From IMG/VR virus record IMGVR_UViG_3300030333_004406, positions 1 through 53,451 of that record: a stretch of DNA of 53,451 nt; one strand, given 5' to 3'. The notes below the pieces were generated by a model. The model was not told where the DNA came from. It worked only from the letters and a program-made list of their open reading frames with translations, and searched no databases. Below, piece by piece: positions 13,901-19,900 of this stretch. The stretch is from a virus. Lineage: Duplodnaviria; Caudoviricetes. Made by a program: the position numbers and the translations under genes. The stretch's first letter is position 1, and each line of letters starts with the position of its first letter.

Positions 13901-16900
13901 CCTTGTACAGACTCATGGTTTTTTCTAACTATAATATCTAATAGAGATCTTTCCTTTCTAGCAGCATTTCTAGCTAAAGCGGTTTTTAACGTAGTCTCTA
14001 CAAATAACATACTAACATCGTAACCCTTGTCTTTAAATTCGTTTACAAGTTTTTCCATGTTCTTTTTTGAAGCACCGGTTCCGTCAACCACTATACCATC
14101 AGCGTTACCTTGAAACTTCATCATCTTTCTTTTAGCAATACCTCTAGCTTGATGACCAAGCTTACCAAGTATACTTCTTTGTTCTTTAGTTAACTCTCTC
14201 ATGTTTTCTGGTAAACCGTGATTCTTTTTTAACCACTCTAAAGAAATATCTTGATTAACTATTTTAAAACCTTGTTCTTCTAAACCTAGTTTTTTAACAA
14301 CATTAGATTTTCCACTACCAGCACCACCAGCTAAGAATATAACTTTCCTACTTGGCTTAGGTAGACCATCTGTATTAGGCACGGTTGTTCTAACGCCAGA
14401 CTTTGTATATGCCATTGTATCATCAAAATCAAACGTAGACATACCTCTTCTTTTTCCACTAATACTATTTCTAGTTGTTTGAGCAAGGCTTTCGTTTTGC
14501 TTATGTCTACCTTTAAACTCGATAGCCTTTCTTAAGTTATCTAGTTTCCACTTATTAGTTTCCTTGGTGATCATTATCTCTTGATAACTTTTACCACCTG
14601 GAGAATATATGCTATTTATATACTTGCCAAAACCATATTTATCTAATAGTTTAATTCTATGGAAATTAGTATTATTTGTTTTGCCACCAAGATCTATGAT
14701 ATCGGCTACAAACTTAGATGTATAAAACTGTGAATGACCTTCTAATACTCTATCTAGTTCCATGTCGATAGATTCTATAGAAACTTTACCTGTGTAAACA
14801 TCAGACATTAATTTAACTATAGCTAAGTTGGTATTGCTGCTAGGTCCTAAATGCTCTCCTTTTGTGAGTAGGTTTTCTACAGCTATTTCAAAAGCCTCTT
14901 GTTTGGTTAATTTTCTCCAATTTTGATTTGGTTTTCCAGAGGGTAAGTATTGTCCACCACCTGTTTCTTTACCAGCCTTTGTAACACTAACACCTTGGTT
15001 TTGATAAAATCTTATAGCATCTTTTAGTAGTGGGTTTTCCATGTTAACCTCTCCATTTCTACCTTGTTTAATTTCACCTTTAGCATTAGTATATTCACCT
15101 TTAACAAAAAATCCAGGTCCGGTGTCATTCGTATAAACCCACTTTCCATCTTTCTTATATCGATACACAGCTTGTGAACCATCTTTAAGGTCAATCATAT
15201 CTAATCTACTTAAAGCTCTAAATCCAGCTATTAAGTTGGTTTGACCCTGCATCATGTGCATAACAGCGGTGCCACTAATTTTATTATTTTTAACTGCTAG
15301 TATTAAATTCTTAACTAGTATTTTGTGAAGTTCTATATTAGCCGCATTTGCTTTTTCTATTCTAGGTTCCAGTTCTTTTAACAACTCTAACTTTCCATCT
15401 TTACCTTCAACCTTTATATTCATTCTTTGAATTTCATCTATTCTTTTAAATAGACCAAAACTCTTATTCATTAACTCAACGTTCTCAACAATCTTCTTTA
15501 ACTTTGGATCACTTTTTAATTTATTTATTTCACTTTTACACTTTCTAAATAACTTTTCATATGGTCCAGGTTTACCAGTTGAATTCTTTATTTTAGCAGC
15601 ATCAAGCAATCTATTGTGAAAACCAACAACATTCCAAAATGCGCTAAGTTGTTTTGCTGTTAATACGTCTTTACCGATTTCTAATGTGATATCTAAAACC
15701 TCCTTAGCATACTTCTCCATTAAATCAACGTTACTCTTATGAAACTTACCGTCAGCCAAATACTGATCTTTCCATTCTTTAAAGAACTCTCCTTCTTTAG
15801 AGTTTCTTATTGCTGATTTATAGTATTCACCTTTCTCAGTTTGTATACCTTTATTAACCCAAGAATCTATAGCTCTTCGTATAGTAAATTGACTAGGTTG
15901 TTTACCAGTTCCACCTATAACATGCCATTCGCCGTTAATAAACTCAACAACCTCTTCCATTCCTTTCTTATAGAACTTTCTTAATAGTTCTCCAGCCTCT
16001 GTAATATCAGTGTATTCAAGTTCTTCAAATCCCCGCTTACTACTAGATAGTCTTTGACCCATGCTTCTACCAATCTCTAAACTCATTAGTTCGAGTTCAT
16101 TCTTAATCATGTCATTAGCATCGGCTTCTTTTATTTCTTTTCTTTTTTCTTCAACCGCCTCACGTTGTCTTATTTCCATGAAAGCATCTTTAGTTAAAGT
16201 CTTAGTTATGTTATCAGCCAACTTGGTTGCTCTAGTGTATTTAGTACTGGATGTTAAAGAAAAGTATTGTATTAAATATGGTAGTGCTTTTTCTATGGAT
16301 TGTTTTTCATATATAGCAACACCAGCTTCTGATTTAAATCTAGCACTAGGTGGTAATTTATGTGGGTGACTTTCTGGTAAGTTAATATGTCTATTTATAT
16401 CTTCAATTGTGGTTAATCTTTTAACAACTCTAACAAACGGTTTTTCGACACCCTTTAATAACTCTCCTTTCATTTGAGATTGCATGTCTAATAGCATCTT
16501 AACATCAAATGATTTAAATATAAGAGCTCCATTTTGTTCTATGAATCTAGGAACATCTGCTGCTGATCCAGTTATTTCTTTACTATAGGTTCTCATTACC
16601 TTTTCAACAGCTTTATATATCTTATCATAATACTGCTGTTTAGTAATATCACCTTTAGTTGTTGATATAGCATCTGCCACCGCGCTCTCAAGGTTTTTCT
16701 TAAACTCTATTGACATTTTACCACTAGCTGGAATTACTTTTCTTAATAATTCGCTAGTTATTATTTCATTTACTTTTTTAGCTGTAGCGTCTCGTACATC
16801 AATAGTACCTTCTATACCAGGACCTTGATCTATGACATCAATTGTTTTACCAGTTGCATCAGTTATAGAACCTAAAGCACCTTCGATAGGTTGAGCACCT

Positions 16901-19900
16901 TTAGCCTGTTCTAGTATTTGACCATATCTTTTAGGAAGTATCTTATTCATGTAAGCTCCAAATGGAATATGCTTCTTATTAACTTCAACCTCCCAAGTTC
17001 TAATTAACTCTCCTAGTTCAGCCATATATCCAGATTGGAAATCTTCATACGAAACTTTCTTTCCTGCTTCTAACTCTATTGTCTCTCCTCTCACCGCAGC
17101 TTTTTTAGATAAAGCAGAAACCAATCTCATGTTATTTAGCATTAACGCTTCTGATATAGGTGTAGTTCTAGGCTTAGAATACATTAATTCACCAGCAGAG
17201 TTCTTTTGATGCACCAGTTGACCAGCTTCGTTAAACTCCATTATAGGATGTTCCCACATTACAGTTGCTTGATCTTTAGCTTGCTTTAACGTAATCTTAT
17301 TATTGGGATTAGCCTTATTGTAACCATCTCTAAACTCATAAATAGCATCAGTTATCTTATTGTTTCCTTCAACAATATCTAATGTTGTTCTTTTTATATT
17401 AGGATTTGTACCTTCTAATTCGTTTATAAGATCTCTTCTAAACGCTGAACTAGATGATCTACCATCTCTACTTTCTACATTTACCCATTTAGCTTGCTTA
17501 GCGGCTGAACTCTTGAGAGCACTTTTAACAGCCACTGTCATACCACCACCATACCCAGGAGTGTTGATATCTTCAATTACTCTTAATATATCTTCAGCAG
17601 CCTTTCTACTATCTTTACCATTTATTTCTAAACCATAAGCATCTTTAAACATAGGTAGCTTAGTAATCATTCCTTGAAACATGTTTGTAAATTCACGTTT
17701 CATAGTATATTCTCTACCTTTTATTATACCATCTTTTAGTAAAGAACCAAACACAGTTATATACTCATCATAATAATCCTCTTTCTTTTTCTCTATAGGT
17801 TTTTTAGTTTTAGGATCAATTTTATTTACCCACTCTAGTTTATTTGTTTTAGGATTAACAATTAACTCTTGTTCATATTTATAGTTAAGCTCTATTGCTG
17901 ATTCTAATTCTTTAAAATCTTTTTTACTAATACGCTCAACTAATCTTTTAAACGCATCAACTATCTCTATTCCCTCTTTACTCACCCTGATACCAGGAGT
18001 ACCGTCTTTCTTAACATACTCCTCCATTATATGTCCCCATATAGCTTCGTGACCTATCTCGTGACCACCAGCTCCAAGTGTTTTATATTTTACGGCAAGT
18101 GTAGGACTTATAATTATTGTTTTCTTTCCATTTTCACCTGTGATAATAAAAGCTTCACCCTCTCCCTCTATATTGTGTTTCTTTTTTAATGCTTCGTATT
18201 CTTTTAAATCTTCAACTACTTTAAAGTTTTCAATATTTTTAATATCTTTTGTGTGGGCTTTATCTATAATAAGTTGATCTTTTACTCTTCTATTATATTC
18301 TTTTACTAACTTTTCTTTTATTTCCTTTTCTTTTCCTTCTAGTTCTTTTAGTTTTAATTTTAGATTTTTTAAGTGAGACTCTCTAGCACTAAAACCATCT
18401 ACTGAATAGCCTTTCTTTTTATTACTATTTTTTATGTTTTTTATTTGTTTCTCCGCGTCTCTTATTTTTTGTTCTATTTGAGCTATTTCAAATTGATTCT
18501 GTAAAAAATCTTCTCTTAGTTTGTGTTTTTCTCTACCAAATATTTTTCTTAATTTAAACTCATTTACCTTATTAACTCTCCACAAGTTCATTATGCTTAT
18601 TTTCTGGTCGGTAGTCAACCTTCTTTCTTGCATATAATTTTCTAGTGTTTCAAGATCCATTTCAGCTAATAACCGTAGTTTAGCCGGAGTTAAAGGACCG
18701 TGTATCATATCGATAACATCGTATTGTCTTCGTAGCTCTTTTTGATATTCTTTAGATGAGATTCTCTTAGCATTATCTTGAGCCCAAATAAGTTTATTTC
18801 TTATTAATAATTCTCTTCTAGCTTCTTCTATCTTTGCAATCTCCTTGTTTAAATCTTTTCTTTTATTTTTATCTTTTGTTTTATTTAATTTGTTTTTTAA
18901 TTTATTAATCTTTTTATCAGCAGCTTGATTAATGTCCCTTTCTCTGTATGTATCGTTTTTTCTTTTATTTTTTTGTATACCTAAACTCTCAGCATACTTT
19001 TTTGTTAAAGGAGTATCACGGTTAGCTCTTAGTATATCTTTAGCGTAAGACTTCCATAATCCACTCTTCATTCCCATCATTGTCATACCTAAGAATACGG
19101 ATATAAAGTTATCCCAACCTTTACTACCCAATAAAGATATCTCCTCCCATTCCGCAGCCCACTCCTTGTATCTATCTGAATTAGGATCTAAGTTTTTTAT
19201 AGAATCCGGCATCCAATCGTGATTAACCCATTCTCCAGAAGCAAAATCTTTTCTCATTTGGTCTGCTGTGGAAGCGAACTGTAGCAATCCAGCAGCTGTA
19301 GCACCATGTCCTACCTTGTCTCCAACCCATTTCATAACTTCTTTACCCGGAACGTATTTGTGTGTTGTCTTTTGAGCGTATAATTTTTGACTCCATTTGC
19401 CACCTCCAGTAGCTTTTATATACAACCATCCTAATGGATTAGGTCTTTCTCTACCACCGATTTTCCAAGTTTTACTTGCTATACTTTTATTTATCGCATT
19501 ACTTAACCCTGGTCTTAAAATGCTTCCCCACACTCCACCACCAATACCCATAAACATTGGAAACGCATAATTAAAATGAGTTTCACCAGTTTCTCTATCT
19601 GTATGTAAAGTATGAGATTCCATTCCACCAAACTCTAATTGCTCAGCGGCAGCCCATTCTATTGGCGTTACTATAGCAGGTGCAACAATTGTATTAATAA
19701 CTTTATTAAGTCCTTTTGATTGTTGGATTTTTTTAGCTTTTTTTGCTACGTTTTTACCAAGTTTACCAGACCTAAATGGTTTTAAACCAATTCTTTTTAT
19801 AGCGTGTAGCATGCTTTGAGTTCTCTTAGTCATCGATACGACGGTTTTTGTACCAGTCATAGCAACACCAGCTAAGTTAAAGCAATATATTTCAGCAACA

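Follow-up and report, generated by a model that had tools for sequence, protein, structure and literature searches.

A sigma-70 domain-2-like module, most likely a very diverged homologue, within a giant protein of an uncultured flavobacterial short-tailed phage

The window analysed here is a linear IMG/VR virus record of 53,451 bp (IMGVR_UViG_3300030333_004406; Duplodnaviria, Caudoviricetes), 98% complete according to CheckV. Nearly all of its genes are carried by the minus strand, and one of them, the open reading frame (ORF) P0001, encodes a giant protein of 3,978 amino acids. Residues ~1925-2015 of this protein are a real, autonomous and conserved domain, which is most likely a very diverged homologue of domain 2 of the sigma-70 family, covering regions 2.1-2.4. 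Homology or identity of fold with sigma domain 2 is, in our judgement, probable. We tentatively prefer a wider reading in which the domain is a sigma-2-only module of an ejected polyvalent giant that, like T4 gp55, would dock on the host core RNA polymerase. A sequence-only reading had pointed to a sigma region 2 pattern at 16820-17160 and quoted three peptides. All three are present in the giant ORF, although on the minus strand, since the plus strand of that segment is interrupted by stops: EALMLNNMRLV is residues 1929-1939 (17119-17151), IPFGAYMNKILPKRY is residues 1990-2004 (16924-16968), and SITDATGKTIDVID is residues 2023-2036 (16828-16869). The parts of the giant that the argument needs are the following.

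10999-22935, minus strand: giant ORF P0001, 3,978 amino acids, downstream of the portal, capsid-like, adaptor and muzzle-like tail genes
17644-18171, minus strand: zincin-like metallopeptidase region, residues ~1589-1764, with HEIGH at 1625-1629 and an invariant Glu at 1724
17311-17385, minus strand: conserved helix before the core, residues 1851-1875, consensus S..T..I...N..I...I
16891-17163, minus strand: sigma-70 domain-2-like core, residues 1925-2015 (~90 residues), placed by conservation, predicted model, Foldseek and hhalign
16828-16869, minus strand: proposed region 3.2-like linker, residues 2023-2036, an unconserved, low-confidence tail

A phmmer search, run exhaustively over 1.84 billion representative sequences, returned 55 matches at E <= 0.001, which are metagenomic proteins. 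Residues ~45-140 of the query, corresponding to ~1924-2019 of the giant ORF, are common to all of them. Thirty-six of the matching proteins have at least 1,500 residues and 16 have fewer than 600, the latter being probably fragments. Most of the matches are giants of 2,300-3,600 residues, and the family is one of multi-domain phage proteins of 2,300-4,000 residues. Of 48 unique domain pieces, 39 were aligned with the window to give an alignment (A1) of 40 rows; the other nine resembled rows that were kept. L1931, N1935, F1992 and Y1995 are invariant in all 40 rows, so the sigma region 2 pattern noticed in the single sequence is kept in its homologues, and no other internal part of the giant-protein family is as conserved as this motif. 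One protein of 1,846 residues, P0050, was excluded from all alignments. Its residues ~880-1625 hold seven tandem repeats of ~105 residues that match the domain profile weakly; they have the look of biased helical repeats, not of sigma-like domains.

The likeness to sigma-70 was evaluated by profile-profile alignment, using a sigma profile made from the region-2 stretches of six E. coli K-12 sigma-70-family genes. The hhalign program aligned A1 to this profile with a score of 23.9 (P 0.0016, probability 16%). The register is the one proposed in the sequence-only reading, pairing NNM with NLR, EDFxSG with DLIQEG and PFGAY with KFSTY, and it was constant across comparisons. The reversed profile scored 11.0 and 200 column-shuffled profiles gave a mean of 9.4 and a maximum of 18.0, with none reaching 23.9; column shuffling is a lenient control because it removes helical periodicity. 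When four phage sigmas, described below, were added to the sigma profile, the P value was 4.2e-4 and the probability 34.5%. When the 40 A1 members were scanned singly with Pfam, two matched Sigma70_r2 directly, though weakly (best E 0.0024); three weakly matched the family DUF7219 (best E 1.7e-4), outnumbering the Sigma70_r2 matches. To remove the selection bias of the sequence-only reading, the sigma profile was also run against a full-length alignment of giants (A5, which took 16 of the 33 loci and has 2,786 match columns). The best hit was the sigma-2-like domain, with a score of 29.0 (P 0.011), and the runner-up scored 13.2 (P 0.87). These results indicated that the region 2 pattern goes beyond chance.

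Structure prediction pointed to the same family. AlphaFold2 run on A1 gave four helices (model residues 21-30, 32-48, 59-76 and 88-109), with a predicted local distance difference test score (pLDDT) of 79-96 over residues 21-110 and both tails disordered. The core helices correspond to regions 2.1, 2.2 and 2.3/2.4. In the Foldseek comparison with the PDB, 28 of the 44 matches listed had a probability of at least 0.30, and all 28 are sigma-factor or holoenzyme entries, the matched chains being taken to be the sigma chains; the non-sigma matches (14 of the 44 listed) had probabilities of 0.16 or less. Examples are 5tjg_F (probability 0.92), 4ki2_B (probability 0.90) and RpoS (5h6x_B), and the target-normalised TM-score (template modelling score) with the N-terminal domain of SigE (8b3z) was 0.72-0.73. 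Of 18 matches with a probability of at least 0.45 in the Foldseek viral library, 8 are named sigma factors, 8 are unnamed and 2 are named otherwise; SigF of S-TIM5 matched at 0.97, with a root mean square deviation of 2.3 over 88 columns. The predicted model therefore has the sigma-2 fold, at Foldseek E-values of about 1. Among the named clusters of the ESM Atlas, 25 of the 30 neighbours are Sigma70_r2 sets with a top score of 0.95, and among all clusters the third rank is a viral cluster with 54% Sigma70_r2, scores that count as leads only according to the tool's own warning. The assignment to region 2 thus stood, as matches were found profile to profile and in structure, and the motif is conserved.

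The residues of the domain were mapped onto E. coli sigma70, the numbering being computed from rpoD. N1935 aligns with N383, L1974 with L412, F1992 with F427, Y1995 with Y430 and W1981, which is Y in 31 of the 40 A1 rows, with F419. The equivalents of these sigma70 residues are conserved in the window family, and the best conserved stretch of the family, PFGAYMN..LP.RY..IL, is the region 2.3/2.4 helix. Among the residues of region 2.3 to which -10 recognition and DNA melting are commonly attributed, the equivalents of F427 and Y430 are invariant, that of F419 is mostly aromatic, and those of W433 and W434 are variable. The domain resembles sigma-70 domain 2 (PF04542; for example 8b3z, the Taq sigma-A fragments 4ki2 and 3ugo, and 5h6x) in its predicted four-helix fold and in the register of regions 2.1-2.3. 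It differs in falling below Pfam detection and in having a 10-residue insertion between regions 2.1 and 2.2. Its location is also different, since domain 2 of sigma-70 factors is the N-terminal half of a 20-70 kDa protein, whereas the window domain is found at residue ~1925 of 3,978.

The sequence-only reading had gone further and described the peptide after the core as loosely like the region 3.2 linker. This part did not hold up. The residues in question (model residues 111-136) have pLDDT values below 50, and conservation ends near residue 2040, where homologue coverage falls from 35 of the 35 long homologues in the 1951-2000 bin to a mean of ~4 in the 2051-2100 bin. Pfam found no family at E <= 1 in residues 2036-2545, and kinase-type and weak HAD matches only in residues 2546-3049. 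Neither Pfam (residues 2036-3049) nor homologue conservation located a region 3 or a region 4 after the core. The collapse of conservation, the disordered linker and the lack of a Pfam family led us to consider the domain a sigma-2-only module and not a complete sigma factor.

On the other side of the core, the giant carries a metallopeptidase motif and a conserved helix. Both were analysed in an alignment (A3) of the window and 20 of the 21 locus references, L030 being omitted as a duplicate of L029. Positions H101, E102, H105 and E200 of A3 are invariant in 21 of 21 rows, and the Glu lies ~95 residues downstream of HExxH. Forty-two homologues extend more than 180 residues upstream of the sigma-2-like domain, and in 38 of them an HExxH lies 181-398 residues before it. 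These homologues hold 39 HExxH motifs in 114,018 residues, and all but one are within that upstream interval. No Pfam peptidase family was matched in the giant ORF. The AlphaFold model of the 511-residue zincin-to-sigma stretch is poor (pLDDT 63.4, predicted template modelling score (pTM) 0.38), and between its zincin and sigma parts there is a disordered linker (model residues 241-324, pLDDT 25-42) whose length varies among homologues. A Foldseek search with this model found no match to a zincin fold; three PDB rows had probabilities of 0.57-0.66, all of them sigma chains (8q3i_F, 4ki2_B and 3ugo_A), and the rest was noise. The helix before the core is residues 327-351 of the same model, with pLDDT of ~90-94. 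Its N1858 (A3 position 334) is invariant in 21 of 21 rows, and the matches of the longer model to sigma chains extend over 194-221 columns. This helix is possibly region-1.2-like.

The phage is an uncultured flavobacterial short-tailed phage, and the giant is a late protein. The closest deposited relatives of the portal have as hosts Flavobacterium (68 records), Cellulophaga (15), Tenacibaculum (2) and Maribacter (1), all at less than 60% identity. The genes that lie upstream of the giant gene in the order of transcription include the following.

42069-44318: large terminase
39670-42072: portal
36938-38446: capsid-type structural protein
35123-35929: SU10-adaptor-like protein
27491-34243: protein of 2,250 amino acids with a weak match to the C-terminal part of the crAss muzzle

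The giant is a multi-domain protein, probably of the polyvalent or ejected kind. A sigma-2-like domain, a zincin motif, a P-loop kinase and HAD-type motifs are present within its 3,978 residues. Among its relatives, an SLT transglycosylase was found in one of three family proteins scanned, and glucosaminidase, GH108 and LPD14 each in one of 16 family members scanned. The location in a late tail-gene operon, the synteny, the polyvalent architecture and the cell-wall hydrolase domains of the relatives argue that the protein is probably packed and ejected. The polyvalent proteins of phages and conjugative elements were described by Iyer, Burroughs, Anand, de Souza and Aravind in 2017 (PMC5512222), who proposed processing by zincins and a 'jump-start of transcription' with an N4-type polymerase as the transcription module. 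The window giant is like those proteins in stringing together unrelated modules, and its relatives carry LPD14 and cell-wall hydrolases. It is different in that Pfam matched no LPD or MuF-type family in the giant ORF, and in that the polymerase there is of the N4 type. The main text of PMC5512222 contains no occurrence of 'sigma', and its supplementary domain lists may still contain such a domain. A jumbo-phage survey (PMC7824862) describes phage sigma factors, in part of its text, as free proteins only. A full-text literature search found no description of a sigma domain embedded in a larger phage protein.

Known sigma factors are synthesised within the cell as free proteins. For the window domain, we infer both injection and binding to polymerase. 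In the mechanism that we tentatively prefer, the giant would be made late, packed in the particle and ejected with the DNA. After delivery, the zincin would cut the giant into pieces, probably releasing the sigma-2-only piece. This piece would dock on the beta-prime clamp helices of the core RNA polymerase of the Flavobacteriaceae host, competing with the primary sigma of the host. Like T4 gp55, it would contact single-stranded DNA of the -10 type, through its conserved region-2.3-like helix (PFGAYMN..LP.RY). We lean toward the initiation of transcription on phage DNA rather than a block of the host sigma, since no part of the domain is better conserved than the DNA-melting helix. T4 gp55 is reportedly a free, 185-residue late sigma with only the sigma-2-like part; it is synthesised in the infected cell and depends on gp33 and the sliding clamp. 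The proposed action would be alike in using a sigma-2-only factor, the host core polymerase and a -10-type element alone; the two differ in that gp55 is a free protein with partners, whereas the window domain is within a giant late protein. Among the Foldseek PDB matches listed, gp55 was not present. We also considered a more elaborate version, which we regard as distinctly unlikely: a third route to the start of transcription, next to virion RNA polymerases and early promoters of the host type, in which a capsid-delivered sigma-2-only factor, coupled to the zincin within a polyvalent giant, seizes the sigma-binding site of the core polymerase at entry and then either initiates at phage -10-type elements that the Bacteroidota primary sigma would not recognise or directs the protease toward the transcription machinery of the host.

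Several results weigh against a sigma-2 module that acts on the host polymerase. The direct match to Pfam Sigma70_r2 (PF04542, gathering score 24 bits), which the sequence-only reading had named as its first check, was negative for the window sequence: the window protein is below that score, neither the whole protein at E <= 1 nor the 221-residue piece at E <= 10 gave a match, and a search of all six frames of the record gave none either. The A1 profile found no sigma at E <= 10 among all PDB sequences, where its top matches were a D-Tyr-tRNA deacylase and enoyl-CoA hydratases. The hhalign probabilities stayed at 16-35% across the comparisons, A1 against the four phage sigmas alone gave only P 0.025, and no Foldseek match in the PDB or the viral library reached E 0.001, the best being 0.4-1. 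Residues W433/W434 and Q406/E407 of sigma70 matter for DNA melting and beta-prime binding. Equivalents of neither pair are kept in the window domain, as the W433/W434 positions are variable in the family and the DLIQEG of region 2.2 aligns with [ED][DE]F.SG[YF], so that Q406/E407 fall on S/G. Without a sigma-4, recognition of a -35 element and docking on the flap are impossible. A tblastn search of 50,697 deposited phage records with the sigma-2-like domain and the C-terminal module of the giant gave no match, and hence no virion proteome covers them. Finally, two cultured relatives have giants in the same slot after the tail genes, a 3,859-residue gene in MW202828.1 (L009, 741-12320) and gp18 of Elemovirus (NC_055854.1; L048, 48851-59935; 3,694 residues, annotated 'structural protein'), that show no BLASTP or hidden Markov model similarity to the window giant. 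The giant slot is conserved and its content is replaced, and genome position therefore does not fix content.

Some results are of little weight in either direction. A phmmer search of PDB sequences with the single sequence found nothing relevant. The prediction of a complex between A1 residues 16-114 and residues 200-380 of the F. johnsoniae beta-prime subunit scored 0.05 against a mark of 0.32, in a run without controls and with an uncertain partner fold, and this score counts neither for nor against polymerase binding. The two cultured relatives were dropped as stand-ins for the window giant since they have no sequence similarity to it; their own giants have a single stretch of 158 residues in common with each other.

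The best surviving rival grants the domain its sigma-2 descent or fold and denies it a role at the polymerase. The domain would instead be an accessory of the zincin, or would bind single-stranded DNA or DNA ends during ejection. This explanation would account for the tight coupling of the domain to the zincin motif, seen in 38 of 42 homologues while all other modules vary, and for the pattern of conservation, in which the DNA-facing region-2.3-like helix is kept and the beta-prime contacts, as generally assigned, are not. The absence of a sigma-4 and the complete sigma that some relatives own agree with it as well. However, the disordered, length-variable linker and the pTM of the 511-residue model mean that the zincin and the domain are not predicted as one globule, and no sigma-2 fold that works independently of polymerase is known to us. 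On balance, we consider a repurposed fold unlikely.

Quite improbable, in our view, is the absence of any homology, with the domain being a generic four-helix bundle that resembles sigma by convergence or through an artefact of helical periodicity. The statistics are weak in absolute terms (Foldseek E of ~1, hhalign probability of at most 35%, Pfam negative), the column-shuffle control is lenient, and the seven weak tandem matches of P0050 resemble biased helical repeats. Nonetheless, the sequence profile, the predicted fold and the language model draw on different information and pick the same family. The alignment has a single register with matching invariant N, F and Y, and the sigma profile finds one spot in ~2,800 columns that include many other helical regions. 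A complete sigma factor (region 2, region 3.2 and more) that is injected in place of a virion RNA polymerase is very improbable. In its favour, there is a real sigma-2-like domain, and no polymerase gene was detected in the window; against it, conservation stops after the domain, the linker that had been proposed is disordered, and the Pfam scans of residues 2036-2545 (no family at E <= 1) and 2546-3049 (kinase-type and weak HAD matches only) hold no further sigma region.

N4-like and crAss-like phages have virion RNA polymerases, and the sequence-only reading had offered an injected sigma-like domain as an alternative to them. A Pfam scan of 33 translated pieces (the giant ORF, the 221-residue stretch and four sub-pieces, and 29 other ORFs) detected no polymerase family, and this fits the idea. 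The fit is less simple, however, because four of 33 related viral records carry a separate and complete sigma. The proposed function of the window giant is alike in that early transcription would be served by a capsid-delivered giant protein; it is different in that the window has a promoter-factor-like domain, no polymerase fold was found, and the host enzyme would be required.

The separate sigma gene of ~253 residues in these four records, which include two of the three that are at least 90% complete, matched at G006:C1:54889-55119, G016:C1:53018-53248, G020:C1:56520-56747 and G028:C1:6237-6449 (loci L043-L046). In the genome search, three of the four pass the 24-bit cut-off when neighbouring in-frame stretches are counted, and three that were scanned alone gave 24.1 bits (E 3.1e-5), 22.6 bits (E 9e-5) and 18.4 bits (E 0.0019). 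Pfam found Sigma70_r2 only, and the C-terminal part looks by eye like a region-4 helix-turn-helix. These proteins belong to the sigma-70 family and occur in phages that also carry the giant-protein domain. They differ from the embedded domain in being complete separate genes, and their likeness to it is weak (the P value of 0.025 given above). No stand-alone sigma gene was found in the window, a linear record; either the window lacks this gene or the record misses that end.

The window was also inspected for promoter-like sequences. A 23-bp motif occurs twice:

25044-25066, minus strand: ATGTAACTATATTATAGTAAAAT, intergenic, upstream of the gene at 24369-25034 and of the operon that ends with the giant gene
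35949-35971, minus strand: second copy, ATGTAACTATAATATAGTAAAAT, with TATAAT, after a GC hairpin and T-run and upstream of the adaptor and muzzle genes

The degenerate pattern ATGTAACTATA[A/T]TATAGTAAAAT (TATAAT/TATATT) has two exact matches in the window, both on the gene strand and between genes of the structural module, with 0 expected from 100 shuffles. With its TATAAT-like core, the motif is a candidate late promoter specific to the phage. It was not found in the 48 other loci searched. The promoter consensus of Bacteroidota is TTG-N17-21-TAnnTTTG, and none of the 11 intergenic regions of at least 40 bp in the window contains a promoter of this type.

The remaining modules of the giant are located toward its C-terminus.

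13945-14355, minus strand: P-loop kinase (AAA_33 / Zeta_toxin-type, polynucleotide-kinase-like), residues 2861-2997, from Pfam and PHROG
11326-13773, minus strand: C-terminal module, residues ~3055-3870, aligned in 33-34 of the 35 long homologues over residues 3201-3800

The kinase matched Pfam AAA_33 (1.5e-10), Zeta_toxin (8.7e-8) and the polynucleotide kinase PHROG 505 (3.9e-6), and a DxDxT-type motif at residues 2835-2842 precedes it, the motif and kinase together being 13945-14433 of the window. After the kinase, a second HAD-like stretch (FDF...DD; residues 3078-3175, 13411-13704, minus strand) is kept in the homologue P0004. The DxDxT motif, the kinase and the HAD-like stretch may constitute an RNA or DNA end-repair module. 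For the C-terminal module, Pfam gave nothing at E < 0.01, and the search of PDB sequences gave nothing below E 0.68. This module and the sigma-2-like domain are all that the giant family has in common, the remainder being variable. The giant ORF has only eight Cys residues, six of them within its final 75 positions and two in the other ~3,900; at residues 3903-3978 (11002-11229, minus strand) there are two C...C...C..H-type clusters with weak matches to DUF5763, Excalibur and zf-primase.

Elsewhere in the window, a GroEL-type chaperonin is encoded at 48722-50290 on the minus strand (PHROG 5725, 6.7e-138), and together with GroES it is also present in MW202828.1 and Elemovirus. Small genes at the left end, all on the minus strand (713-1108, 1462-1890, 4006-4503 and 4818-6143), encode a thioredoxin-like protein, a staphylococcal-nuclease homologue, a DUF5675 protein and a MAM-domain protein. 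Scanning 185,579 species genomes with a single protein turned up no relative, and therefore no lead to a host or a prophage.

If the reading of an ejected sigma-2-only module is true, parts of a promoter factor would be deliverable ready-made with the DNA, and a route that captures the host polymerase would join the known strategies of early transcription. The constant pairing of zincin and sigma-2-like domain is a concrete, testable unit of ~450 residues. The reading would also open a way into the biology of the marine and freshwater Flavobacteriaceae podoviruses, a large group of uncultured phages represented here by 55 protein clusters and 33 viral contigs.

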